Shown here one piece after another: positions 9,560 to 64,000 of a DNA stretch of 64,000 bases. The stretch lies in contig NC_087259.1 in assembly GCF_037042905.1 (NCBI RefSeq), forward strand, positions 18,228,001 through 18,292,000, read 5' to 3'. This DNA is from Lytechinus pictus. Lineage: Eukaryota. The translations under genes were made by a program, and so were the position numbers. The notes beneath the pieces are model-generated. The model saw nothing but the letters and a program-made list of their open reading frames with translations, was not told the origin of the DNA and did no database searches. Each line of letters begins with the position of its first letter. The first letter of the stretch is position 1.

Positions 9560-12500
9560 ATGAGGAACCGCAGTCTTATTGGTATTGAGGTATGTTTCGG
9601 TGTATGATTTTATTCCTCTATGTTTTTAACATGATTCTGGGACTAGCTAATTCATTTCAAAAAGACGAAAATGCCTATTAAGCAGAACTTTATATTTTCG
9701 CATCTTAATATTTGCGTTTAGTAATTTTTAAATATAATTATGTAAGCGCATATTCACAATTATAAAAAATAATGACTCAATGTTTATAGAAGATTTTGAT
9801 GGATATTATACGAAATATTGTGCGTCGAAGAATAGATTTGCATGTGGTTTGAGGTAATCATGAGCAAGACGAGTTTGAAATAGTGAAGACAAATGAAGTT
9901 ACGCAGAATTATGTAACGGCTTTGTGTGAGAAATACATATCTTACTAGTATTTGAGTATGAAAATGATAACGACCCAAGTCGAGGTCTTTTTAGCTTAAT
10001 TGAATTAATCATGGGATATTGATGATTTTACAAGAACCCATCTTATGTGAAATTTATATACTGAAATTCTAATCAGAAGTGGCCGAAATAACAGAAAAGG
10101 GACCTAAATCATTATTGGGCATACGCAATTCTTCTTCTTCTCTTAAATATAATCGAATGAACTATGATTGGTCATTCTTATATTCTTATCCTCATTATAC
10201 TTGAAACGATACTCCGATTCTCGGTAAAAAAAAAAATGTCCGACTGTTAATATGACAGTACAATATTTTGTCATTGTTTTTCTGCATGTAGATGGAAATT
10301 TCATGTTATGCTATACTTGTTGCATTTTGGATCACTACTAATTTGGATATTTCCCTCGGTAAGTAGAGGTCCATGGTATAATTCAAATAGCAAAGGTCCC
10401 GATAATATCCTTATTCTCAGTTTTTATATTAACTGATTACCCATGGCACATTTACAGCTCATACACTTCCAGTTATCCAATCACAGATTGATAAATATTA
10501 GGCAAATGCAAAAGTCACCACGCATATATATAAACCAAGAAGCAATATGCCTCTTTACTGCTAAGTCTTAATTTATTTCAAGCCAACTGATCGTAGGATT
10601 TTTATGATGCCTGCTACTGAATGCTATTTTGATCTTTCTCATGTATTTCCGATGTAATAATAATAATAATAAAATATGCAATTTGTTAGGCGCCATTCAT
10701 CTCTTAACAGATGCTCAAGGCGCACAAGTGAAGGGGGGGGGGGGGAAGTAACAGAAAATCATTGATAAAATGAGTTAAGATGTATGTTTTAAGCTTGATC
10801 TTAAACGTTTAGCAGGTTTAGACACTCTTGCTATCTCGGATCTCTCGTGGGAGGGAATCCCATAGTTAGGGCTCTGCATGGATGAATGCCCCCCACTTTG
10901 TTTTACACTTTGGAACTGTAAGAAGATGTATGCTTTTTATTGTATGAAAATCTGTATTTTAGCCTTCTGACCTGCCAGAGGTTTTTGTGGAAAAAAAAAG
11001 TTTTCCGTCATATTTTTATAAGCGTCCTCCTTTTTGCATGATCTTATTATTTCATCATATTTTGTTTTAATACATCAGCGCATTTTCCACGTATATGATA
11101 TTTGTCTAAGATTTGTTACTTTATCACTACAATTTTCAACATTGTAGCGTACGTAAGTGTCTGATTAATATCATTGGCAACGTGTGGTTCGTTCATTTTA
11201 ATGCTTTGATAATTTAACGGTTTTTGGCTAAATAATTACATTGAGTACATTCTGCATTTTGCGATGCTTTCACCATATTTTTTTAGTATCGAATGCTGGC
11301 GAAAAAACTGTGAATTTAATCTCAAAATGTACCATAATTTTGTAACAAGTTGCCAGAAGTTATTTGATTTCGCATAAAAAACGAACATGTTCAAAATTTA
11401 TAGTAGTTATGGGTGAGACCTCATACCAATTTGACCTTTGACCCATGACCTTTGACCGCATGACCTTTGACCGCATGACCTTTGACCCCAACTTCCGGTC
11501 ACTGTTGACCCCGTGACCCCACCTTCCGGTCAATCATGACCTTTGACCTTTGGGTACGCGGTAAACAGGAAATTGGATAATGGAGCGCGGGAAGCGATTT
11601 TAATTGGATAATGGAGCGCGGGACGCGATTTTAATTGGATAATGACTCCGCGTGGGGACGCCATCTTAATTGGATAATGAAGCGCGGGACGCGATTTTAA
11701 TTGGATAATGGAGCGCGGGACGCGATTTTAATTGGATAATGACTCCGCGTGGGGACGCCATCTTAATTGGATAATGAAACGCGGGACGCGATTTTAATTG
11801 GATAATGAGCCCGGCTCTTTCATATAATCTCAAGGAAAATATGTTCATCCACGCTAGAATGACCCATGATGACCCTAAGAATCCGTAAGAATCCGTAAAA
11901 AATCCGTAAGAATCCGTAAGAATGAGTAAGAATCCGTAAGAATGAGTAAGAATCCGTAAGAATGAGTAAGAATCCGTAAGAATCCGTAAGAATCCGTAAG
12001 AATGAGTAAGAATCCGTAAGAATGAGTAAGAATCCGTAAGAATCCGTAAACATCCGTAAGAATCCGTAAAAAATCCGTAAGAATCCGTAAACATCCGTAA
12101 GAATCCGTAAAAAATCCGTAAGAATGAGTAAGAATGAGTAAGAATGAGTAAGAATCCGTAAGAATCCGTAAGAATGAGTAAGAATCCGTAAGAATGAGTA
12201 AGAATCCGTAAGAATCCGTAAACATCCGTAAGAATCCGTAAACATCCGTAAGAATCCGTAAACATCCGTAAGAATCCGTAAAAAATCCGTAAGAATGAGT
12301 AAGAATGAGTAAGAATGAGTAAGAATCCGTAAGAATGAGTAAGAATCCGTAAGAATGAGTAAGAATCCGTAAGAATCCGTAAACATCCGTAAGAATCCGT
12401 AAAAAATCCGTAAGAATGAGTAAGAATGAGTAAGAATGAGTAAACATCCATAAGAATCCGTAAGAATGAGTAAGAATCCGTAAGAATGCGTAAAAATCCG

Positions 12501-15500
12501 TAAGAATCAAAGTACCTTCGCGCGCGTTTCATGATTACGTATAATTACAAGTTTGAACGTTAATTTTCTTCATTTCCCAACAAATAATCATCGAGTCAGC
12601 ATGAATATATTGGATATGTCCAACCGTTACGCTTGTTCACGATGCGATAAAACTTTTAGTAGGAAATATAACATGCAGAGGCATGAACAAATTGAGCATG
12701 ATACTGGAGAAGAAACGAGTGAAGATGAAGAATCCGACCCATCCTCTCAAATGCAAAGAGTTGAAGAATCCAACGGTGATTCCGAAACGAGCGTATCAGA
12801 AAGCGATGGACACGAATCGTCAATGACAGCAAACATGGAAGAAACTGAAGACAACCTCGCTTATCGAGGATGGTTAGAGCAAGCCATGACGGCCACCAAG
12901 GACTTGAGAGACGAAAAATATCAGAAATACATCTCAGAAGGAATGGAAGAAGAAGACGCTAAAGCAAAGGCTCACGTGAAACTAATGTGGGCAGTCAAAC
13001 GCATCTTTTTCGATCTGTACTCTCAGTTCTTGCAGCAGAACGTGTACCTCGAAGACGCTGACATCAATCATGAAATCGTGTCCGATCTCACGGAAAGATT
13101 AGAGAATGGCATGGAATTCCGGAAAGCCGTACAGAGAGTGTTAGCCAGGCATGGTTCACAATTCGATGGTTTATTCCAGTATCAAGGTGACGATGACGAT
13201 AATGATGATGGTGGAGAAGAAACGGAGGGTGAAGATGGAACCTACAACTAAAGGCACAAACATCAGCTTGTCGAATAATCCAAGAAAACGCCGTCAACAT
13301 AAATGCGGGCATAAATGACAGTTTGAACTTCATTGTGTTCATATTTTCTGAATGCCATCCATAGACATGTGTTACAATCCAATAAGTTAAGCGAAGGGAA
13401 AGAAAAAAAAACGAGAACTTCACTTTAATATTAACAATGAACAGTTAATTATTTTGTTGTGACAACGTAATTTGAGAACATATCTTACATTATTTTTACC
13501 TTTGTATCAAAATCTGCTGTTTATACACTAATTGAACCTATCTACATTGAAATGGAATAGAATAAATGATAGTAATAATAAAGAATCATCCTTGACTGTA
13601 TAGTGTTTCATGTTATCACCATCTGTACTGCGGATGAATGAAGTTGATTGAAAGGAGTCGTCTACGGGTTTCAATATAGTATACTTTTGCGGGTCAGAGA
13701 GCCGTGCAGGTCATGTGAGTTAAAATGAAAAGTATGGAGGTATGTACAAAACAGTATGGAAAAGTCAGAGAGTTTTGATGGGGGAAAGTCTGGAATGAGT
13801 AGAGCTTGAGATGCCACTGTTATCAGGATTATAATCACATGTTGGATTACCAATAATTGTTGTAATAAGAGACAGAGAGAGCCGGCTTTCACCTTGAATA
13901 GGATATCCCAAGTTCAATGACGCCGACCCTCATTATCCAATTAAAATCGCGTCCCGCGTTTCATTATCCAATTAAGATGGCGTCCCCACGCGGAGTCATT
14001 ATCCAATTAAAATCGCGTCCCGCGCTCCATTATCCAATTAAAATCGCGTCCCGCGCTTCATTATCCAATTAAGATGGCGTCCCCACGCGGAGTCATTATC
14101 CAATTAAAATCGCGTCCCGCGCTCCATTATCCAATTAAAATCGCTTCCCGCGCTCCATTATCCAATTTCCTGTTTACCGCGTACCCAAAGGTCAAAGGTC
14201 ATGATTGACCGGAAGGTGGGGTCACGGGGTCAACAGTGACCGGAAGTTGGGGTCAAAGGTCATGCGGTCAAAGGTCATGCGGTCAAAGGTCATGGGTCAA
14301 AGGTCAAATTGGTATGAGGTCTCACCCATAACTACTATTTATTTCCAGTCTATCTTAAAGTTGCGAGCATTTGTAAAACAGTCGCAAGCATTGTCGCTGA
14401 ATTTCATTGAATTTTAATTCGCCACTGCTATGGTGCCGACTGTACCCACATTATTCCAACTCTGTTATACCCCGAAAAGTTCTTGCAGTAGAGTCCCAAA
14501 ACACCCGCAATCTTATATTGTGTTAAATTACAGAATATTAGTACAATTATTTCAATTTTCTTGTAATAAAACCCTTCATGTTTTAATAGATCTGTTCTTT
14601 TAAATTGCAGAAAATGTTTCTGCAAACAGTGTATAATAGTGTGTGTTAAATTAACCCAAGAATATTTCAAATATGTGCATCTGAGGTTTGTGAACACGTT
14701 ATGTTATTGGCCGTTTAGTAAAGATAATTATGTATATCTATAGTATACAAGTTTTTCCGAAATCTTATATAGAAGACAGTGAGTAAAGAAATATGTCTAT
14801 AATTACCAGTTCTGAGGGGTTTCCTTTTAGGCACAACTTTAGCTATTTTCATTATTTGTAGGAACACTCCCCTGCACCAATGTAAAGTTAAACATGTAAG
14901 AGGTGCAACTATAAATGGAATTACATCTTTTATCAAATCATTACTTGTACCATCAAAACCAGGGCTCTTCTTCTTTTTCAAGCCTTTTACATAATCTATA
15001 ACCTCAAAATTGACGACAGGAACGAAAAATATACATTTCTATCATTTGCACCGTCTAAATAATTTACAAAGGTTTCTTGTATATCGGGTATTATAGTGCT
15101 AGACAGAGTAACCCCAATGTGAGAAAAGTAATCATTAAATATTTCACACATCAGTTTCTTGTCTTTAGTCCAGTCATCTTTATAGATATGATATCACCCT
15201 CGTCTACGACTCGGGCGATATAAATCTAGTTTGGACGATATATGTCGTATCGCCCCGAGGTCAGTCAATATTGCTTTATTATCTTGAGTAAATTTGCGTA
15301 TTAACTTTCTACCAAATGCATCGCAAGAATTCTTCAATACTATGTTCTGGCAAAAATGGGAAAATGATCTTAAATATCAGTTTTACAATAATACGAGCAG
15401 TGGGAATAGGATACAAGTTGGTAAAACATTATTAAGTTTTGCATGTTTTCTGCTACTCTTGTTGGTTTATTAATCAGTGGAATCAAAGATAATGTACTTA

Positions 15501-18500
15501 ACTTAGAGTATCAACAAAATTACTAAAAGAGTTATCACTGTTGTAACAAAATGAATTAATGTTAAAGTCACCCATAATTACTATATTTTTATTACTGAAT
15601 TATGTGCTTAAAATAATTTTAAACATTCCTTCGATAAATTCATAAACGTCACCATTTGATGACCGATAGACAACTCTTACTAGCAAGTTTTTTTTTCTCA
15701 CCGGTCGGTTTACTGACGGTTAGTCTGACATCACTTGGTCTAATCATCAGATGGGTTAACAACATTCGGGCTAAACCCACTAAGTCCAATTCTCTTTTGG
15801 TCTAATGACCACTTGGTCTAATAGCTAATTAATCTAATGACCACTTGGTCTAATAGCCAATTGGTCTAATGACCACTTGGTCTAATAGCCAATTGGTCTA
15901 ATGACCACTTGGTCTAATAGCCAATTGGTCTAATGACCACTTGGTATAATAGCCAATTGGTCTAATGCCCAGTTCGGCTAATCCTCACTTGGTCCATTAC
16001 TCAGTTGGTCTAGTGTGCAGTTGGTCTTATTTCCATTTCGGCTAATTTCCACTTGGTCTAGTTTCCACTTCGGCTAATTTCCACTTGGTCTAATTTCCAG
16101 ATAGTTTAACATTCATTTCGTATACATGCCACTTGGTCTAATTTGTAGAGTTTGGTGACTTGTTTTCAAATTTCTGGTGAAATTTGTTAAGTTTGAAGCC
16201 GCGCGCCGGCTTCAAATCTTCACACGCGCGCTTCTCGATATTGGAGTATACAGTTAGAGTGACGTACGGTATATTTCCATCCTCAAATTGTTGAAATTAG
16301 GGGATTTTTAAAAGCCTTTGGGGAAGAAAAACAAATATTTGGGGATTAAACAAATTTTGGGGATATTTTGTCTATAAAGGGGACTTTTGAAGGTTTTCGT
16401 AAAAAACGAAAAAATTTGCTATTTTCTGTAAAATAACGCTGATAAACGATAATAGAGGTGAAAAAGGAAAAATTTGTATTCATCCACATCTATGTAGGCC
16501 TACACGATCTCCTCTAGATAGTTAATGGCTTGCTTAACCCAGTCAGGGTTTCTAATTTTTTAAGAAAACAAAAATCCCTGATTTTTCTCTGATGAAGTTT
16601 AAAAATTCCCTGGTTGTTATTTAAACTCATTCCCAGTTTTTCATGTTTTCTAGGTTGTTGCAGTGATATATTGTATTTTCATATACACATAGGCCTATTA
16701 TTATTTTTCATTATGTACCAGTAGGCCTACTTGTATTGTAGTAAAAGAAGCTACACTATAAAAAAAACATAAAATGTCATTCAATGAATGTTGTTTTAAT
16801 ATACAACAAAATATAACATTGTCTGACTGACTATCGTGCTTCGACTTTTAGGCCGATCAAGATTTCCTGATTTTGCCCTCATTTAAGGCATTTTCCCCTG
16901 ATTTGAGGTAATTCCCAGATTTTTCACTGACTGTTATCAAACTGTATCTAACTGGTCTGTTATTTGCCTCCAAACTTATTATTGAAATAACTAAACAAAA
17001 TATTCATAACAAAATTACATGATCTTATGGCTTTGTAACTTTTTGAATCCCCTAAACTGCATAACCATGATAACTATTGCTCATTTTCCATCAAGTTCAA
17101 GTATTGCCCGTAATGGTGCATAACAATGATTTAAAAGGGGCATCGACATGTTTACCAGATACGTATTCACACAATTAACGCGTTCCTTTCTTCATAATGT
17201 TATTCTGATAAAACCCTGCCATTCGACCATTATAAGCTGAAAGGTCCCCAACTTATTGTTCTGTAAATTTGCATGCAATGATGTAATGATGAGTATGATA
17301 TATTTTTCATCATCTTCTATATTATCGATATACCTATAGGCCTAATTATAAGAATTATATTTGATTAGAATAATTCATTTGATGAGCAACTATCTCGTCA
17401 TCGATAGTCCTTCACCGTGAGGTTTTGCGCCCAGCAGCCCTACCCCAGCTCTATCCCTCCGGATCCTGGCGACATGTATTGACGGATCCATGATATTAAT
17501 TTTATCCATTACGTATTTTGTTAATTCTAGATCAAATAAATAATAATGAATTATGTCATATTAGAATAAATGGACATTAGACCAACTGTGAATTAGACCA
17601 AGTGAAAATTAGACCAAGTGCTGATTAGCCCAACTGGGCATTAGACCAATGGGCGATTAGACCAAGTGGTCATTAGACGAATTTGATATTAGACCAAGTG
17701 GGGATTAAACGAATTGGACATTAGACCAAGTGAGAATTAGCCCAAATGGAAATTGGACGAATTGGATATTAAACCAAGTGGGAATTAGACGAATTGGATA
17801 TTAGCCGAACCGGTTGTAATTGAAATGAGTTTAGACTATGTGAAGTTGGACGAACTGATAAGTAGACCAAGTGGTATTAGACCATCCGATAATTCACCGG
17901 AATTATAATCTAAGTAAAAATGGATTCTACAAAACGGCTTTTCATAATACAGTAAAAAATGATGAAACATATCTAACTTTCATTTAAAAAGGAGTGAAGA
18001 AAATGCCGAGGCAAATAATGCAGAAAACTTAAGAACTAATCAGATGAAATAAGCAACTGGATGATATATACAATGTGTCTAAAATCAGACCAATTGTATC
18101 ATGTATGAAGCATGCATCTGGAGATTGCTTCATGAAATGACTTTTCTATCCTACAAAACAAATGGAAGGAGAAAAACAAACGTCATCAGAGATCCTAGAG
18201 CCAGAAGTTGAATCTTCAGGAAATCAGGGTCGGCTACTCGGGAAGAGTAGTGGTATCAGAATTATTCAAGCTCAAAGAAAACTGTAAGTAAATACTGTAC
18301 AGATGAATCACCAGAATTCTTTCATGTAGTTAAACATCATTTACATGGATGATGCTAGTATTTTCTCATCATTACACATCATTTTCTTCTAGCTTGTGAA
18401 ACAGGTCTTTTTGAATTCAGAACGTCCTGCTATTACTTCTCCCAGGGCACATCCGACTTCTACTCTTCTAAATCATCGTGCGAGGAACTTGGCATGCGAG

Positions 18501-21500
18501 TGGTGGAGATTGAATCGCAGGAGGAACAGGATTTCTTGGTGGCGAAGATCCAAGACAGTGATGCATCTGACGAGGATTACTGGATAGGGTTAACTGCGAT
18601 AACCTGGCTCGATGGGACACGCCTGACCTACGATAATATTGGCTGGGCTAGAAGTGGTGCTTTCAACGAAGGTGCGCAATGCTTTCGGATATATGCGGCA
18701 TCATCATCATCTCTTTTCAGGTGGTACGACGACGGTTGTTCCGAAACTAACTATTATATTTGTGAAGCGGAGAAAGGTGAGTGGAAATTTCCAACTAAAG
18801 ATTATGTACATGTATGCAACAGCTTAGCAAGGTATGATGGTGGGCCCCAAGTCTGCGCACCTAACAATTTGGGTTAAGATTTAACATGAATTTCTTCTTA
18901 TTTCACAAAATCTTTTGGTTAATAGTGTTCCTTGTATTATTAAGAGTAAGTGTACCAAATTTCTCATTAAAAAATGAAAGAAAATATAAGATTTTCTTGA
19001 AAAAACCTTTGGGCAGTCATTTTCAGATTGAAAAAAAAAAGGTACCCCATGTCTGCGCACTCATTCACTTTGCACACGATTCAGGGATTTTGATGACAAA
19101 GGCTGCATTTTGAGGCGGTCACATGAAATGCCCTGAATTCATTATTTTTCCACCATTTTGAGTCGGATTTTTTTATGAATACCTGTCTATGTATTGCATG
19201 TGTAAAGTTCGTGCTCGTTGCGTATCTTCTTTTACTAGAATCGCGCAGATACGCGGGTGCGCAGACTTGGGAGACCGCGCAGACATGGGGGAACTGACCA
19301 TATAGCGTCCAAAATGTCAATAATTTCTGGCGCCTCATTGAATGGCTGTCGCGTCCGGTTAGGCAATCGTGTAACCCGACCCGACGCGATCTAAACCCGA
19401 GGTGATAGCAAAAGCCTATTATATGGATCCGTCCCATCTCCACATACACTACGACAAAAATGAAATACTGCGGAGGGAGATTATAGATGCAATTTTCATC
19501 CTTCCGTTGTTGAACATCGCGAATTTGTGAATAATAAGGGTAAGCCCAAAAAGTTGCAAAGCTACACCATTAGATATATGCTTCACCATCTGTCCTTTTG
19601 TTTTTACAGCTTGTGGTGAATTCGAATCAAGTCATGACCTACAATTCCATGAATTCGAAGGGTCCTGCTATTATATCTCTTCAAATGAGGTCAACTTCTC
19701 AACGTCAATGTCGAACTGCGAATTCATCGGCATGCACCTTGTTTTCATCGCATCTCAAAGCGAGCAAGACAGCATCGTTGGTATGATTGAACTCCTTGAT
19801 CACGAATATACTAAAGAATACTGGATAGGTCTAACAGACTTGGGATGGGACGAGGACGGCTCTGGCCTGCCATATCATAACTTCGACTCCGATTCCCCGC
19901 ACTCCTTCGATAATGGCAGAGTTTGTTATCGCATGGACTCGGATTATCAATTCAAGTGGCTTGACATTGATTGTCATGATGAATATTATTCCATTTGTGA
20001 AAAGGGTGAGTGTTCGGAATATATTTTTTTTATGATAAGACATTTTGATTATCAACCTACGTGCATACCTAGAGCGAATGTTTATTTTTTGATTTTTTTT
20101 TGTGTGTGTTGTTGTTGCTAAAGTTGCTTGACTTGGTTATCAAAAGTGATGTCACAGTGCAAGCATAAGTTGAGAGTGGAGCACGACGGGAGTTCCAAAA
20201 ATAAGTGTAGGGATTCTTCAATTTAAAGGGATCTAAATAAATAGAGTAAAATTCATAAAGCAAAATACTGAATATTTCATCAAAATCGGACAACAAATAA
20301 CGAAGTTATTGAATTTTAAAGTTTATCAATATTTTGCGAAAACAGTTATATGCACATCGTCATGAATATTCATTAGGTGGGCTGATTTTGTCACATCCGC
20401 ACTTCGCTTTTTCTTATGTTATTACATGAAATCATAAACGTTTCATTTTTTCATGTGAAAATGATGTGTCTCCATTACGATGAAATTATTATGATGAGTT
20501 GCGGTAATAAATAACTAATGCATTTAATCAGTTGTCAATCCAATTGTTTTAGTTCTTGGTAGAAAAAATTTGAATAAACTTAATTTCATAAAATAAAATA
20601 CAAAAGAACAAGAGGGGATATGACATCATCAGCCCACCTAATGAATATTCATAAAGACATGCCTAGAACTGTTTTACTGGAATAGTGCAAATCTTTAAAA
20701 TTCAATAACTTCGTTATTTGTTATCAAATTTTGATCAAATTTTCAGCATTTTGCTTTGTGAATTTTACTCTATTCATTGGGATATATATCTTTCCAGCCT
20801 GGACCATCCCTTTAAGGATAGCTTGATAGTTATTTTTTTTGCACACAGAACAAGAAGCAAGCAATGACCCCACTACACCAGCAACATCCGTTACAGCATC
20901 AGTAGGAGCTACCACACCGTCATCAACAAAAACGAGCACAACAGAGAAGGTAACCGCATCTGAAGCCTCACCTTCAAGACAACCATGTAAGTCACAGATG
21001 AGTCGAACAACGTGTCTCATCAGAAACTTATTGATAGGATTTTTAAACTTGTCATCATCAACCAAACAAACTGCCGAGTACAGGCCAATTCTTTGGCCGA
21101 CGGTCGATGAATTATTAATTCAATTTAATCAATTGAATTTTACCAAACAATGGCCACATGATGAATTATTTGTTAGGTTGTATATTTTAAAACGCTGTGC
21201 CTAGATATGTAGTACTCATTTTACAATGTTATTAATTAGCGTGCTAAGCATGGCAATAGAAGTGAAGTGTAATTCTTGTGTCAGACACAGGGAGGATACA
21301 ATAGGCGCCGTAGGGTCTTTCTCCAAATTGCTTGCCACGTACATGGCTCCGCACGTCGAACATGGACCCCTTTCGGGCACCCAGGCGTTGCCGACGTCTT
21401 TTTATTTTGGGGGGGGGGGCGAGGATGTTATATTTGGGAGTTGGATTTATAGCGAAAATGGAAGTATGTCCAAATCATCAGTGATTTAAACATTCAAATG

Positions 21501-39100: not shown

Positions 39101-42100
39101 TCTTTGTACTACTCCTCATTCGTATTATTGGATAGTGTTTTGTTTCCTTTTTACCTATGCGCCTTGAACATTTAGATTTAAATGGATTTGGCGCCTGAGA
39201 AATCACATGTATTATTATTATTATCTTTTACATGTCCGACAGGTCGTATAACAAAATATACCTCGCAATAGTAAACTACATGCTGCGTGACAAGGACTGG
39301 GTTTATCAAAGTTAATATCCGTCATCAACATGATCAATAGCAGAATAATTGAAGATCCGTAACTAGATATACAAAGAAGAAACATCAATTACCTTGAATA
39401 CTTGAATAAACATGTACGTTATGGCGGAATGACGTGTACATTTTAGATAGTTACTGAGGTACTGGTAAAGAGAGAATTACTTCAACTTACGTATATTAGA
39501 GGACAGTGTTCTAGGTTGATGTAAGCACCGCCAATCTTTCCTAAATCCGTCTCATTCACCCCAGGGAATGAATCAAAATACTGGAAATGGGGATGAAACA
39601 ATTAGAATTAAATACATCATCTGATGGTAGTATTTTCATGGTTTGTTAAGACATATTATTAAGCGATGGATAAAGCATCACCCCCACATGACATTTTCAA
39701 TAATGAATAAATCTCCATTAATCATTTATTGATATTACATTAAAACTCAATTTAATTCATAGGTAAATAATTTTCACATTGGTTGTACATCAAAACCCAA
39801 AACTTGGAAAAAGTGTACCCTTCGCCTTCGAAGGAACATAACTCGTTGACCCGTAACTTCGATTACCTTTTTTAGAAACACCCTGTATAAGGCTTGCACT
39901 CATTCATTTTAAAATCAAGTAAATTTGGAAACTTTCATATTTGGAGTACGCTCAATCATCATCCCAATTTAACGAGTCAAGCAGAGAAGTTACTAATCAA
40001 CACTTGCAAATTAACGATGTATAACACAATCTGATCAAGTTCTATTTTCAATCAACCAAATTAAATGACATATTCCTTGTTTAATTATAAAAATATTTAA
40101 TATTGAAACTGGTGCAGGCACCTGATATTGTTCTGGCAATAATTCGTTGTGCATTGTGTTCGTACAAATCGCCGCAGTCTTGCTATCCACGCTGCACATT
40201 AGTTCAGTTGGATTCTCGCAATATGGACCTAAAGATAGTCCTCTGCGTAAGCGAAAAAAAAGAAAGGAGAGAAATGATAAACTTAAGTATATAAAATCGG
40301 GAAAAATATGAAAGATTGTGACGATGATTATGACAGACGTATATATATTGACTTTATACATAGTGTAGTAGGTTTCACGGTACACAATGTATCTTTCTTG
40401 GGCAAGTGTTGGTCCTGAAAAGGACCACCCAATCTCGACGTTTCGACAGGTGTGTTCTTGTCGTCCTCAAGAGAATGAGCAAAGTTTGTATAAGAGTTGT
40501 CGCTCCTCAGTTCATCAGTACTCAATACATTCAACAGTGTTCAAGGAAATTATCTTGCATTGTGCCCATTCACCATAGCTGTGGTAGTACCGAAGCGATG
40601 ACATCAGTTGCCATGGTGTCATGGCGGCCTGGTTCTAAACAAATGAACCCGCCGAATGAAAGCGCGTGTTTCTCATAGGAGAAAATGGCTGCTATCCGAA
40701 TTTGATCACTTGCAACCTATTTTCTTTTCAGACGAGCCAAAGTCATTTGCAAATACAAATGTGTACAGACGATCGTCAGCTGCGACTCTGTTTAGAACCA
40801 GCCCGCCATGACACCATGGCAACTGACGTCACAATTCGGTACTCTATTGACCGAGTTTGTTTCTTTGAAGTTATTATTAATCGAAATACTTTGATTTGCT
40901 TATTGTATTAGGAACACAAAATTTATCCGGTAATGAGAGTTACAAGATTTATATCACGTGGCAAAGATGGCAATAAAAACCATTTGGTCCCACTTCAGAG
41001 ATGACCAATGACGAATATGACTAAAAAGTTTGGAGGCCGACATTTAGTTCGCGTGCACTGCTCATTATCAGGTGATGGCTAGGGGCCTATCTCCAAATTA
41101 TTGTCTTCTCTTACTTCTTCTTCTCCCTTTTCTTGTTCTTCTCCTCCTCCTTCTTCTTTTTCGTGTTGTGTAGAGCCTGCCTTTGAAAATGTTGGTACTG
41201 GTTTTCGCGTGCGAAGTTCGCAGATGAGTAGTCGCAGTAAAAATATATCTCTATAGAGATATTATGTGCGCCTACAAACAGAAGAGGCTGAACAGAGCCT
41301 CCTTTATTCCGGGGGGGGGGGCACTTACATTATTGACGAGTGGATACCATGCGCGACCAAAAACACGTAAAAAGGATGTCTTTTTCAAGATAGGGCACGT
41401 TACGTACTTAACGTAATAAGGGTGTAAAAAACACTAAAATAATGAAAAAGGGTATCTATTTTCGCTAGGAACTACCCCAGATAGCAAAGTATCTGGGGCC
41501 CATATGGGAATCATGTGGGCCTACTGGGGCCCACATGTACCATGTAAAACCCATATGTGGCCCATATGGTTTGTCCCACCTAGAACCCAGATAATAAAGA
41601 CCATATGGGCCCCATGTGGTATCTATATGGGCGATGTGGTCTTTTTTCAGGGTCGACCGAGCCCAGATAGAAACAAATAAAACCCATATGGGGCCCATAT
41701 GGGTTTTCCCGCCTAGAACCCACATAATAAAACCATATGGGCCCCATGTGGTATCTATATGGGCGAAGTGGCATAATTATGGATCTACTGAGCCCAGATA
41801 GAAACATATAAAACCCATATGGGGCATATATGGGTTTCCCCACCTAGAACCCACATAATAAAACCATATGGGCCCCATGTGGTATCTATATGGGCGAAGT
41901 GGCATAATTATGGATCGACTGAGCCCATATAGGAACATATGAAACCCATATGGGGCCCATATATGGGTTTTCCCACCTAGAACCCACATAATAAAACCAT
42001 ATGGGCCCCATGTGGTATCTATATGGGCGAAGTGGCATAATTATGGATCGACTGGGCCCAGATAGAAACATATAAAACCCATATGGGGCCTATATGGGTT

Positions 42101-45100
42101 TTCCCACCTAGAACCCACATAATAAAACCATATGGGCCCCATGTGGTATCTATATGGGCGAAGTGGCATAATTATGGATCGACTGGGCCCAGATAGAAAC
42201 ATATAAAACCCATATGGGGCCTATATGGGTTTTCCCACCTAGAACCCACATAATAAAACCATATGGGCCCCATGTGGTATCTTTATGGGCGAAGTGGCAT
42301 AATTATGGATCGCCTGAGCCCATATAGGAACATATAAAACCCATATTGGGCCCATATGGGTTTTCCCACCTAGAACCCACATAATAAAACCATATGGGCC
42401 CCATGTGGTATCTATATGGGCGAAGTGGCATATTTCTGGGTCGACTGAGCCCAGATAGAAAAATATAAAACCCATTTGGGGCCCATATGGGTCCTCCCAC
42501 GAATCCATATAATAAAACCATATGGGCCCCATGTTGTTTCCATATGGGCGGTGTGGCTTATCGCCTGATCCCAGATAGAGACATATCTAACCCATATGGG
42601 GCCTACATGGGTCTTCCCACCTAGAACCTACGAAGTAAAACCATATGGGCCCCACTTTGTATGTATATGGAATCGCTTGAGCCCAGAAAGAAACGTATCA
42701 AACCCATATGGGCCCTATATATTGGTCCTACCTGAAACCAAAAAATAAGTAAACCATATGGGCCCCATGCGCCATCTATAGGGGCGATGTGGTTTATCGC
42801 CTGAGTCCAGATAGAGACATATCAAACCCATATGGGGCCCATATGGGTCCTCCCACGAACCCACATTATAAAACCATATGGCCCCATGTGGTATCTATAT
42901 GGGCGATGTGTCTCATCGCCTGAGCCCAGATAGAAACATATTTAACCCATATTGGCCCCATATGGGTTCTACCTAGAACCCATGAAATAAAACCATATAG
43001 GCTCCATGTAGTATCTATATGGGCCCATATGGGTCCTCCCACGAATCCATATAATAAAACCATATGGGCCCCATGTTGTTTCCATATGGGCGGTGTGGCT
43101 TATCGCCTAAGCCAATATTGAGACATAAACCCATACGGGGCCAAATTAATCCTCCAAACTACAACCCACATAAAATAGTAGAACTAATAATTGGCCATAT
43201 GCAGTATCTCTGTAGGCGATGTGGTCTGATATAAATCTATTAATCTACTGATAGACACATAATAAATCCATAGGTAGCACACACATTTGTGTATCGAATG
43301 GGTCTGTATGTATACATTGGCGATACAGGGGCCGAAGGGACCGCCCCCCCCCCCACCCCCATATTGGTGGTCTAAAAATCAGGGGGGGGGGAGGAAAAAG
43401 AGAGGAAAACAAAAAGGAGAGGAAATGGAAAAAAATAAGAGTGGACAGGAGAAGAGAAAAGATAAAGTGGGAGAGAGAGACCGGGCTTTGCATGTAACCG
43501 AAAGGAAATGGCGCTTTATAAATGCCCAACTATTATTATTATTACATTAAAGAAAAGGACGAGGGGGGGGGGGGCTTGGAACAATATAGGCCGTTATATC
43601 GTGGAAAAAATCTGCTCACGCTAATTCGCACTCGCATTTTTTAGATATTGTGCAGGGGAATGGTTAACTCATCACTTCACGGGGAATTATTTCATAAAAA
43701 GAAGAAAAACTATCAAAATGTGTGTATGTTTTTGTTTTGTTTTGTTTAATTTGTTTGTTTGTTGTTTGTTTGTTTGTTTGTTTGTTTTTTTTCTCTTTTT
43801 TTACGGGGGGGTAAATCACTATATTAGGAGGATTTCAAAACAAAATAACACGGTTGGTCAAAAAAAAAATGTTTTGAAGAACATTGAAATTACAAATCAA
43901 ATCAAATCAAATCAATTTATTCAAATAAAATCCACAGTTTAGGATTGTCATCAAATATTATAAATAATGAACGTGGCAAAACAGAGATATATATATATAT
44001 ATATATATAAACAAGTAAATATAAGCAATCGCCAAAATATGTGTCCATTCGAAAAGAAAATACATTATTAAACATTTTGCTAAACTCTTACTGATTTCAA
44101 GATATTACAATTAAGTCATTACAACACGTCCATGACGTCATCTATTAACACGAATGTATCATAGTCCGTCATTATAATTACTCATATTATTTAGTTACAT
44201 AAATTTTACTTATATCGTAATCATTACTTTTATTTGCATGATGTACAAGAAGTAACCTGATTAGCTCAGTTCTCTAAATGACGGCACTATTGTATAGGCC
44301 TATTATCATAATTTTTCTCGTTGCGGGTTAAGGATGGGCGCGAGTACGTTGATTGATTTCTAGTTGTTTTTGTCGCCCTTGTTCAGTCATAAATTTACTA
44401 TTGCTAATTCTTATCTTCAAATAATTCCTAACTTATAGATTATCAATGTCTAGTTATAAATATTTCTCTATGTAGGGCCTACGTTTAAGGTCTTTATATA
44501 CGTTCTCAGTTTACTACAATAATTCTCTTCCAGTATCTATCTTCCTGAAACTGTACCCACTGATTTAACTTGATGTCGTTTAGAAAATGTATATAGGTTT
44601 TCCCAAATATGAGAATAACCTATATCTTTCATAAATAATTCTAGCTTTTGACAAAATCCGTTCTTTATTTTCATGTTTGATTGATAAATGTTAATTAGTA
44701 TGTTAGCCTTTGCATTTGTTACTTGACACTAAAATCCGATCATGTATTTTAAAGCTCGACATAGATAGTAATCAAGGTATATTTCACATTGTTGGTAAAT
44801 CTCGAAGGGGTAAAAAAAGGGGGGAAAAAAGAAGAAGAAAACAAAGATTTTCTTCATTTTCACATTTTTTGATACACTTATGATGAGAACTCAACCCCAT
44901 AAAAGTTCGCTTTGGAATGCCTGCCTTTTCTAGAAATCACATGTTTAGTGTTGATTTTAGGGATTTATCGGGTACCCTATGTATACGGCTAATTCGATTG
45001 ATGATAAATAGCTTACAGATAAAAAAAAATGTTTGTGATCTTACAATTAATTCACAGGTTAGGTTCTAATCGTGTTAATGCATCTTAAAATAAAGAAAAA

Positions 45101-48100
45101 TTTTGAATTTTCAAAGGAGAACACCCCAGATAGCAAAATAACTGGGACCCATATGGGTCCAATGTGGGTTATCTAAGACCCATATGGCCCATATGGAAAC
45201 CATATGGGCTAGAAGTGGGTAGGTCCACATGGGGCCCACTTGGGGCCCATCTGGGTTATATCTGGGCCCATATGTACCAGATGAATATCATCTGGGCTGG
45301 AGATGGGCATTTCCAAGTGGGACCCAGATGGGCTAAAATATGTGGGACCCATCTGGGTTATATCTGGGCCCATATGTACCAGATAAGCCTTCTGGGACCC
45401 AGATGGGTCACATCTGAGCTCAATATCACTGGATGATTGATCTGGACTGCACTCATGAATATTCATCACAACAGTAAATGACCAAAATTTTAGCTAATAC
45501 GGCTACAACAATTAATATGTTTATGTTTATGCAAGGATTCCACCATGAAAAGTTTCAGAAAAGTATGTAACTTATTACCATAAAATTAAAAATCAAAACA
45601 TTTAATTTCAGGAGAAAATTTGCAAGGTTAAATATTGAAAATTGTTATTAACCATAGCCTGTCAAGTATAGCAAACTCGCTCTATATATAGAAGTCAATA
45701 ACAAGATTCAGTGGTTAGGTGTAGGATAGGATTAGGATAGGATTAGGATTTAGGGTTAGAATGTAGGATTATAGGATATGATAAAATGATAAGGATTAGA
45801 GTATTGGGTTGTATATAAAGTCACCTTACTGATACAAATTAATATATTTTTTTAATTGATTAAAACATCGTGGACCCACATGGCCCACATGGGACCCATA
45901 TAAAAACACAGTATTGTTTTCATATGGGGCCCATATGGGAGCAATGTGGGCCTGCCCATATTCAACCCACACTAAACCCACTTGGCCCAAATGGGCCCCA
46001 CATAGGTTGTACATATGGGTCCCAGATTGGCCAGGTGGGGCCCATATGGGCCCATACATAGCCCAAATGGGCCCCATATGGTTTACATGGGTACGATGTG
46101 GGCCTGCCCATATTTACCCCACGCGAAACCCTGGCCCATATAGGCCCCAGACGGGGTGTACGGTGCAAAAAACACAAGGGGCCCAGATGGGCCCATACAT
46201 AGCCCACATGGGCAACGCATATGGGGCCCACATTTTTAGCCCTGATAAGCCCACAAGTAACCCATATGGGCCCCATATATTTTGCACACTGGGACGTGTT
46301 TAGGGTCTAATTTGCGAGGGTGTAAAAGATTAAGACTAAAATGTTTTATAAAGGATGTACTTTTTTCCCCAAGAGTCAACACTACTTGTTTAGAGTACGA
46401 TTTGCGCGAGATGTGGGAGGTGGGCTGTACTAAACCCAATGATGTAGGTATACCGGCGACCGACGTCAGTGATATAACGCTGTACTTGTTTAGGGGGTCA
46501 AATCAGGGAATAGTTGCCAAGAGTATCGTTTTGTTTCCAATACTTGTTAAGGGTAGGGTTTCACATGCAAATACTTGTTAAGGGGTGCATTTTCAGAATA
46601 TTGAAAATACGTGTTTAGGGTGCTTTTCGAGACCCCATGGTCGCGCATGGTATCCACTCGTCAATGGAAGTGCCCCGGGCCTTTATTTGATGCACCTTAT
46701 GCTTGAAAGACTCGTGAGGAGCTATGCACGAGGTAATTCAGTTTGAAATAAAAGTAATGTTTGGCACGTTAATTTTATCATTCTAATACCGTAAACTTAA
46801 ATACAATCAAACAAAGACAAAATAATAGTTTCCTCTCGAGATGATATGTCAACAAGATACTCAATATTCACACAATAACTTATTACTTACAGGAAACCAT
46901 CTTACTTTTCCCCTTGCTTCTTCTTTTTCTTGCTTACAGAATAATCCATCACCATACCTATACTTAAAGACAGAGCATTTACAACTGCTGATTTACGTTT
47001 CGTATTGTGAAATACTTACAAAAATATCATCGGGATCAATAAAGTTTTCGCGTCTTTAGATCATAATATCATAATTTACCCTATCTTTTTATTGGAAAGT
47101 TCACTGAAACATGAAGTAAACAAAGTTATAGAAAGGCTTCTACTGTATATTTCAGTGGTTATGAATAATATTTTGAAGCACTTCGCCTGCAATATTTGGA
47201 AGAAAAGTGCTCAAATATATCTCCTTCTTTGAACATGAATTTCGACTGACAATATCGTTTAATCCTTTTTAAAATGTCTATTCTGATCTACCATATTTTA
47301 TAGAATATTCAGTGTTTAACTGATTCAATTTGAGCATTCGTTAACTCATATCTGAACCAAGGGAACCACTGTCAGCACGAGAGGCGTGAGCTTCGCCCTG
47401 GTCATTATTTTCCTACATATATATATATATAGGAAAAGAAGGACCTGGGTCCCGTAACACAAAGGTTAGCGATTGATCGTACGCTTGATTTTCACGATTG
47501 ATTGTACATTGTAGTCAATGCAATCAATCGTAGAAAATTGTTCTACGACCATTGCTAAGCTTTGTGTTACAGACCTCAGGTGTTGATACCAGGTGTATAT
47601 ACATTGCTCATTTGCAGGGAGTCTGAAGACCTGTACCCGATTAAAAAAGCCGGTAGATTTGAATGAAAACCGAACTGTGATTGGTTTACTTTTACGTAGA
47701 TATTTCTTCAGATTAATCGCAATTCGAGTTTGATTCCAATTTTTGGAGCTATTTGTAATATGGACCCCTTTAATCCCCCTTCAACACCTCTTGGGGAAAA
47801 CAAGAATCCGGAGCACTTAATTAGACCCACAACCCTACTTTCAATCCATAAATTTAAGTTGTAATATGTTCATATAGAGAGTAGGCCAACATAATGGAAT
47901 GTTTTAACAATATGCCTACATAATCGAACATATAATCATTGATTACTGTAATAAAGTTTCGAATCAATAACACCATCATCCCCATCATCATCATTCAGTA
48001 GAATAAAATGAAATTTGATTTAAAAAAAATTATTTCCCACCTTTCTCTTTGGGTGTCCATCCACCATTTACAACTCTGATTGACAAATCCACAGCCCAGA

Positions 48101-61989: not shown

Positions 61990-64000
61990 GACTCTACAAA
62001 ACACTTTACTGCTTTTTTTTATGACCCCAACCCAAATTCAATATATTTTTCTCCTACAGATGAGGCAGAAATTGCGGATATAATTCATGGCTTAAAAAAT
62101 AAGCAAAGCTCGGGGCATGATGGCATCAACAACATTTTGTTAAAAAAGAATTGTAATACCATTGTTAAACCCTTGGCATATATCTATAATTTATGTATGT
62201 CTACTGGGATTGTTTCTTCATCGCTGAAACTAGCTCGAGTTATACCTGTATTTAAAAAAGGTGACAGTTCTGCGTTAGGTAATTATCGACCCATATCACT
62301 GCTGACCTGTTTTTCTAAAGTACTTGAAAAATTGATATTTGTTCGTACGACGAACCCCTTGCAATTTGGTTTTCGTGAAAATCACAATACTACACATGCA
62401 TTATTAACAATAGTTGATAAGATTGCCAGCGGAATCGACAAGTTTCAACATACTGTTGGGGTATTCCTGGACTTCTCCAAGGCTTTTTATACCATTAATC
62501 ATGAAAATTTATTACACAAACTTAATTATTATGGAGTCAGGGGAATAGCCTTGGAGTGGTTCAGGAACTACCTAGACAATAGAAAACAATTTGTCTCTTT
62601 CGAAAACTTTAACTCCGAAACTTGTTACTTGTGGGGTTCCGCAAGGCTCTATTTTGGGTCCCCTACTTTTTCTTACATACATAAATGATTTTTGTAAGTC
62701 CTCCAATAATGTATCCTTTATTCTGTTTGCTGACGATTCTAATATTTTTTTCTCCCATAAGGATCCACGCCATTTGCTTGCCACCATTAATCACGAACTA
62801 GTACATGTATCTGAATGGATCAAAGCTAATAAACTATCCCTTTATCTCCAAAAAACCAAATTATATGCTCTTTAGTAATATCATAGAGGAACGTCCAGGT
62901 AATATAATTTTCGAAAATACTAATTTACAAAGAGTTGGCAGTACTAAATTTCTTGGGGTAACCATTGATAATAATCTTTCCTGGAAAGAACACGTTGATC
63001 ACATTTGTAAAATTATTTCGAGAAATATTGGTATCATAAACAAAGTAAATTTTTTGTTTCCCACTCATATACTATTCAATTTGTATTCAACTTTGATCCT
63101 GCCTCATTTAAACTACGGTATAACAGCATGGGGGAATTGTGCTGACTGCCTCCTGAACAGAATTTTACTTTTACAGAAAAAGGCTATTCGTATTATTTGT
63201 CATGCAGATTTTCGTTCACACACTGACGAACTTTTCTATAAATATAATATTTTGAAGATTGGTGACTTGTATCGATACAATCTCGGAAAACTCATGTATA
63301 GTTTAGATAAAAATGAACTTCCAAATATTTTTATTCCATGTTTACAAAAAATGTCGATATTCATCATTATCCTACTAGGTCCGCCGGGCTCTTTCATCCA
63401 CCAAGAGCTAGAACCATCCTTTTAAATAAAACATTTATTTTTACAGGTATCAAACTTTGGAACTCCCTTATAGAATCATTACGTAACAAACCAACACATT
63501 TAAGTTTCAGTCGAGGGTTAAAGAAAATTCTTATCCTTGGGTATAAACCCCAGAACTTAAACATTTATGTATAAGCAGCTACCACCTCTTGTTCTTCTAC
63601 CCTTCTTATTTTCTTCCTTCTTCTCTTTTCCCCTCCCTCTCACATTTTTTTTTCTCTCTCTCTCTTCCTATCACATTAATGTCTAGTTCTATTGCTTTTC
63701 TTATTTCCCTGTTTGTCTATGTTTTGTAGTGTGTTTTGTTTTGTTTCTTTTCCTTTTTTTTTCTGTCTTGTCCTGTTCTGTCCTGTTTTGTTTTTGTTTG
63801 TGTGCCTTTTTTGTTTTTGTCTTTGTTTTGCTTTTAGTATTTGTCCTGTCTTGTCCAAGTGATTGTCTCTTCACACACTCCTGAATTCATGTTTTTTTTT
63901 ATACAGCAGGGGTATATATGATATAATATTTTTTGTTAATTGTAACATAGTAGGCATAACAAGCTTGACCCCACTAGTATTCTTTTTCATTGTACAAACC
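61990..64000 (+). mobile_element. 5'-truncated, frameshifted CR1/Crack/Daphne-type LINE (RT ORF2 about 61990-63574 plus 3' UTR)
   Basis: [55 protein letters not shown] motifs spread across three frames. Confidence 0.92.

Follow-up and report, generated by a model that had tools for sequence, protein, structure and literature searches.

Palindromic Polinton-ended elements of Lytechinus pictus, probably satellites, and their single conserved gene with a possible role in helper DNA packaging

Non-autonomous Polintons are already known, and Kapitonov and Jurka (2006) reportedly described deletion derivatives in which the helper ends were kept and the transposition genes lost. The protein-primed replication of phi29 yields palindromic products. 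Foldback transposons (FB, and TU of sea urchins) are built of long modular inverted repeats with tandem subrepeats and duplicate 8-9 bp of their target. Long terminal inverted repeats (TIRs) with AG...CT ends and a 6-bp target-site duplication (TSD) are the rule for Polintons, also called Mavericks, and are present on full-length elements of the genome studied here. Polintons encode an integrase and a protein-primed polymerase (PMC6431247) together with a genome-packaging ATPase (PMC4028283), in AAV snap-back genomes one end is duplicated in inverted orientation about a short loop (PMC8235507), and Rpp, a protein of the phage satellites known as PICI, redirects helper packaging (PMC6739421). 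Literature titles and abstract openings yielded no description of palindromic Polinton satellites that carry a gene and swap ends. The family described below bears on the question of whether animal Polintons still replicate extrachromosomally and package DNA.

The window is the whole stretch of 64,000 nucleotides of Lytechinus pictus that was analysed. It contains a mini-element of 2,935 bp (11402-14336), the features of which are collected in Table 1. Long TIRs, AG...CT ends and a 6-bp TSD are shared with autonomous Polintons, including the full-length elements of this genome, and the two TIRs are 100% identical to one another. The Polinton-type ends that an earlier sequence-only reading had proposed were borne out, the left TIR being 89-92% identical over 407 bp to the ends of co-resident full-length elements (L041/L042, L044). 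Similarity to these elements is confined to the 407-bp ends, and the interior is unmatched. The 216-aa gene is the sole substantial ORF within the element, and ORF inspection, Pfam and comparison with the helper revealed no gene for polymerase B, DDE integrase, packaging ATPase, protease or capsid there. The copy has a right arm and one half of the loop hairpin, its left arm being reduced to the TIR. It is a young one-armed deletion derivative of a palindrome with its gene intact, and the one-armed form did not spread, since the exact sequence of the deletion junction occurs once in the genome. The deletion may have preceded or followed insertion, the sequence being compatible with either order.

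Table 1. Features of the mini-element, in window coordinates
Feature	Position	Strand
Left TSD ATTTAT (6 bp)	11396..11401	no strand
Left TIR, 408 bp, AGTAGT end, 15-bp and 31/35-bp subrepeats	11402..11809	+
Deletion junction: TIR, then 8-nt piece from ~45 nt inside the arm, then central loop	11810..11818	+
Central-loop remnant of the palindromic form, including half of the 13-bp hairpin stem (11857-11868)	11818..11868	+
Tandem array of a 10-bp unit (62.8 copies) upstream of the gene	11876..12508	+
E2F-like TTCGCGCG	12517..12524	+
Predicted core promoter with a TATA-like box (12540) and an initiator-like TCATTT (12570)	12540..12575	+
216-aa ORF: finger, acidic tract, helical domain, acidic tail	12601..13251	+
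3' arm, AATAAA at 13561 and 13577	13252..13928	+
Right TIR, 408 bp, identical to left	13929..14336	-
Right TSD ATTTAT (6 bp)	14337..14342	no strand

The label of orphan given to the gene in the sequence-only reading did not survive the genome search, in which 150 of 320 candidates were scored and at least 150 matches to the protein were found, with many further relatives elsewhere. Inverted pairs within 3.2 kb account for 106 of the 150 listed matches (51 divergent pairs and 2 convergent pairs), and 44 have no listed partner; the score of the window protein is shared identically by 11 listed places. Typical copies of the window end type, T1, that were fetched are mostly 4.6-5.8 kb long, with halves ~95-99.9% identical; tandem arrays and a short loop separate two genes that point outward, the 10-bp array bordering the symmetry centre. 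Family elements are typically whole-element palindromes of 4-6 kb, that is, inverted duplications of the whole length around a short loop, from which the window copy differs by the loss of one arm. The mini-element perceived earlier was therefore real and bounded by Polinton ends, and its normal form as a two-gene palindrome was invisible from the window alone. A 13-bp hairpin occupies the loop of L045; such a hairpin is not universal, because the other end types have stems of only 5-8 bp. A search for homologues beside Polinton TIRs had been suggested, and paired ends with a perfect 6-bp TSD surround the gene at 44 of the 69 loci examined (16/31 in one survey and 28/52 in a second that searched for 6-bp TSDs only, with 14 loci shared), the ends of the others being variant, truncated or undetected. 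A fold-back artefact of assembly was ruled out, as the left and right flanks differ and TSDs are present. An ordinary host gene was also ruled out, the copies being dispersed, intronless and inside mobile ends. In G000, about a dozen palindromic units, whose genes are near-identical and whose TIRs are truncated, stand in tandem at C17:8136542-8180127 (L097, L098).

Compared with foldback transposons, the family has similar long modular inverted repeats and tandem subrepeats. It differs from them in a 6-bp TSD at 44/44 paired-end elements (28 of them from the 6-bp-only search), in its Polinton ends, and in arms that themselves carry a coding gene. Elsewhere in the window, inverted arrays of a 16-bp unit at 15733-16158 and 17537-17824, ~1.5 kb apart, resemble a separate foldback-type element.

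The two arms are closely matched. Of 28 two-gene elements, 22 have a pair of identical ORFs and the others show no more than 4 nt of difference, in a comparison that left out the 10 of 86 full-span ORFs having stops. The match is this close even for elements that are 8-19 nt away from the nearest other one sampled. In L060, and likewise in L082, one and the same stop is found in the two arms. To judge from these alignments, identical arms fit the regeneration of both from one; alternatively, gene conversion after insertion could produce them. In contrast to the usual identity, the two gene copies of the T6 elements L128 and L141 differ from each other, and do so in the same way in both elements. 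According to the model proposed here, the integrase and protein-primed polymerase of a helper would move the element in trans via its borrowed ends. The polymerase would copy back at the centre, the displaced strand would snap into a hairpin whose open end provides a double-stranded origin, and both arms would be remade from one arm during copy-back. With AAV snap-back genomes and with the palindromes of phi29, the family shares a one-end inverted duplication, a short loop and, probably, helper dependence. In contrast to those, its palindromes are integrated, inherited and of an old lineage, with a gene absent from the matching helper.

The gene family was found within six end types, T1 to T6, all with 6-bp TSDs and long arms. 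Five of these are matched by a co-resident polymerase-bearing element, and full-length partner elements also bear 6-bp TSDs. Ends of T1, T2 and T4 are 89-98% identical to those of Polintons with polymerase, ATPase, integrase and capsid genes. Those of T5 are 80-92% identical to an end beside a polymerase gene, polymerase being all that was detected in that element. The T3 partner is a degraded 14.6-kb element (L102:1015 to L103:6739) with T3 ends, a 6-bp TSD, a fragment of polymerase and a C2H2 ORF with multiple fingers, in which integrase, capsid and ATPase were not detected, and T6 ends have no partner among 18 matches. Two full-length Polintons with T1 ends (C6:1299809-1316732 and C17:12796767-12809163) carry genes for polymerase, ATPase, integrase, protease and capsid-type proteins. 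A PC4-like ORF (PF02229) is located just inside the left end of a T1 full-length Polinton at L041:1537-2232. In comparison with Polintons of 15-25 kb, the elements of the family measure 3-6 kb, are whole-element palindromes, and lack polymerase, integrase, ATPase, protease and capsid genes.

No homologue of the 216-aa gene is present in the T1-ended full-length Polintons L041-L044. Profile A1 gave finger-level noise at best over 24 Polinton regions (best E 0.25), as did A3 and the domain profile A6 over 46 regions (best E 0.048 and 0.98, respectively); A2 contains ATPase columns, its ATPase matches were discarded, and A3 and A6 are the valid tests. The gene was not kept from the matching Polinton and marks a lineage of its own. 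The earlier suggestion that it was retained when all core genes were lost is thus not supported, given T1 helpers devoid of the gene, none in 46 Polinton regions, and six end types. The genome searches scored the best candidates only and the sampling of Polintons is incomplete, so that an unsampled Polinton outside the 46 regions scanned might carry the gene. In a tree of 51 genomic rows from 35 chosen loci and 12 outside proteins, gene clades track end types, with the exception of T2 and T3, whose genes are near-identical and do not separate. It appears that the cassette moved recently from T3 to T2 ends by recombination, because an inner T3 end (~420 bp) is kept in 4/4 T2 copies checked and L090 carries 1.7 kb of the left end of a T2 Polinton. 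Template switching onto another Polinton would supply new ends in such a process. In G000, T3-like ends occur in a 32-kb region at C14:1097426-1129542 (L104-L107), along with an inverted repeat in its interior and a copy of the gene bearing a frameshift. The family resembles non-autonomous Polinton derivatives in its helper ends and absence of transposition genes; unlike them, it is palindromic, changes ends between helper families, and has an interior that is not a piece of the helper and carries a gene under selection.

Selection had also been suggested earlier, and the comparison of dN/dS proposed for it agrees with that idea. When representatives of the end types are compared, the helical domain has a dN/dS of 0.08-0.18 for 14 of the 15 pairs, with synonymous sites near saturation in several pairs and no differences between T2 and T3, which shows purifying selection between end types. 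The T1 family, with 22 distinct ORFs over 212 codons, gives an omega of 0.58 on a coarse grid, with a log-likelihood of -1586.2 vs -1589.4 at omega 1, suggesting mild constraint. This weak constraint within a young family would also suit copy-back defective genomes of a lost or unsampled Polinton, in which the gene was an ordinary accessory and its conservation reflects the history of that helper. Polinton-linked homologues, both fused and stand-alone, and the incomplete sampling favour such an origin as well, but there are five gene clades of high synonymous divergence, all in small elements whose arms are long and whose ends differ, one cassette has demonstrably passed from one kind of end to another, and the interior is unlike the T1 helper beyond 407 bp. 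We regard that explanation as improbable, and the family is very probably one of satellites.

The protein itself is encoded in one uninterrupted frame of 216 aa, free of introns as originally reported, and the AATAAA expected downstream is present. The layout first described, a single N-terminal C2H2 finger followed by an acidic tract, a helical domain and an acidic tail, agrees with Pfam and with the structure model. The finger (zf-C2H2, aa 10-33) scores 25.2 bits, exactly the cut-off, and the acidic tract (~aa 34-82) and acidic tail are modelled with low confidence. The helical domain (aa 80-197 as modelled, 83-195 as annotated) is predicted as all-helical from a 72-row alignment, with a pLDDT of 95.4 and a pTM of 0.78. 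No Pfam entry matches this domain, and the fold searches that had been recommended, performed with the full protein and with the helical domain, returned no significant structural match: the best BFVD match to the domain has E 0.25, the best VIA-align match has Z 7.1 and rmsd 2.9 with 62 residues aligned, and the ESM Atlas search was blank. Rows of terminase small subunits in BFVD were disregarded, their E being above 1.5. This all-helical domain appears to be uncatalogued.

Among 1.84 billion representatives, a profile search found 221 matches at E <=1e-10, many of them multi-finger proteins, and the finger-acidic-helical plan is common to dozens. Twenty relatives were looked up, nearly all of them unnamed and on short contigs; none was found among viral contigs in 146 pattern matches, and a metagenome scan gave 3 short loci, on which Polinton genes or ends were absent. 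In nine outside proteins (P0090, P0097, P0114, P0180-P0185) a Polinton-type A32/IVa2 ATPase is followed by the helical domain. The fused ATPases are 30-42% identical to the local Polinton ATPase, and the domain scores are 84-134 bits with a profile that relatives of these proteins partly helped to build. A C2H2 finger is located at the start of 5/9, and two further proteins begin with an end portion of an ATPase. P0079 has fingers and the helical domain with the motor absent. Moreover, the tail of P0114 finds the 216-aa gene family in the genome at E ~1e-9, and P0183 leads in the ESM Atlas to A32-type clusters, mostly from molluscs where the source is recorded. As a result of the nine fusions, five with a finger, and of P0079, the stand-alone protein looks like a finger-ATPase-tail protein minus its motor. 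The earlier assignment to a Polinton accessory or regulator therefore stands as far as the link to Polinton-type proteins goes, with "helper-modulating" as the best-fitting term, and nothing positive emerged for a transactivator or histone chaperone.

In the proposed model, the protein would be the finger and tail of a finger-ATPase-tail packaging protein from which the motor is absent, and it would bias or disturb helper packaging in favour of the satellite. Several findings count against a packaging role. All 19 local ATPase matches cover the motor part only, so the local helpers lack such a tail and may present no surface for a partner. The contigs with the fused proteins reach 4.1 kb at most and do not show the element type, and the fusion may reflect gene neighbourhood rather than shared work. 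Furthermore, helper ATPases of different families share only 45-52% identity, and a packaging contact would therefore have to be promiscuous. An intact protein may be dispensable in cis, since L060 has clean ends and a TSD despite the stop in both arms. If the elements are satellites, a packaging role is slightly favoured. The complete reading, in which this is the single conserved gene of Polinton-ended, mostly palindromic satellites and its protein acts on helper DNA packaging, is evenly balanced in our judgement. PICI satellites serve as a works-like model only. Like them, the family would consist of small helper-dependent elements with a packaging-related gene, one of their own that is absent from the helpers examined and under purifying selection. 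Unlike PICI, the family lacks its own integrase and replication genes, contact with the helper motor is predicted from fusions, and no sequence relation is shown.

Signals upstream of the gene bear on a different role for the protein within the same satellite. In T1 and T2/T3 the gene is closely preceded by a tandem array, and in L124 (700-1030), a distant homologue from another organism, a short-period tandem array is located directly upstream. Together with the C2H2 finger and acidic tracts, this arrangement suits a transcriptional or chromatin regulator whose finger binds array or TIR subrepeats while the acidic tracts activate or displace histones, so that helper genes are switched on or the element is shielded from silencing. 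A DNA- or host-directed role would also tolerate changes of helper more easily than contact with an ATPase. However, the helical domain is the best-conserved part and its only identified context is packaging ATPases, and a lone C2H2 finger usually binds DNA weakly. The motif at 12517-12524, which we take to be E2F-like, is present as earlier observed but not conserved: of the 9 other copies checked, only 2 match, and these belong to a single distant end type. It was rejected as a conserved feature; conserved instead is a pair that we presume to be TATA-like and initiator-like (TCA(T/A)TT), spaced 31-32 nt apart in T1-T5 representatives and 25 nt in T6, the TATA match being absent in 2/9 copies. 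A regulator of this kind, with either outcome, is considered rather unlikely.

Reads from the family were found in public data. Raw-read sets X19-X21 gave 107, 43 and 58 reads, respectively, from several copies, and in two raw-read runs depth over the ORF is ~9-16 vs mostly 1-5 in the 3' arm. COX1, sought in the assembly as a read control, was not found. Reads in rRNA-depleted libraries cover the ORF and TIR with uncalibrated strand, an EF1A-like exon having no reads and nearby repeats being read on both strands. Such reads, along with the palindromic layout, high copy number and ATPase-less packaging module, would be expected if the host tolerated or used the family as a Polinton inhibitor, the palindromes giving double-stranded or small RNA and the protein acting as a dominant-negative packaging factor. 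Dispersed young insertions with their own TSDs point instead to selfish spread, as does a contig from a public run that begins at 11402 with a different flank, the same end at another site. A host inhibitor is thus considered very unlikely.

Returning to the satellite reading, a more far-reaching version is offered tentatively, by analogy, and is judged possible though somewhat doubtful: an old satellite lineage of animal polintoviruses, with a hairpin replicon, successive helper ends and a motor-less adaptor that redirects or blocks the ATPase. If true, it would be a eukaryotic counterpart of phage packaging pirates, and these Polintons would still package DNA. A satellite with snap-back geometry, end swapping and a packaging-linked gene would be an indirect record of replication and packaging. 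The mobile family also accounts for some odd chimeric gene models. In the public models P0012, P0015 and P0186, host genes (sialyltransferase-like, hydroxylysine kinase-like and RFC3-like) are fused with the ORF, be it its 5' part or a piece; these models are either annotation artefacts or real chimeric transcripts. Other repeats and genes in the window include a 131-bp tandem array at 41519-43127 with related pieces at 45150-46300, C-type lectin exons at 18494-20121, and a split reverse-transcriptase fragment at 62197-63425.
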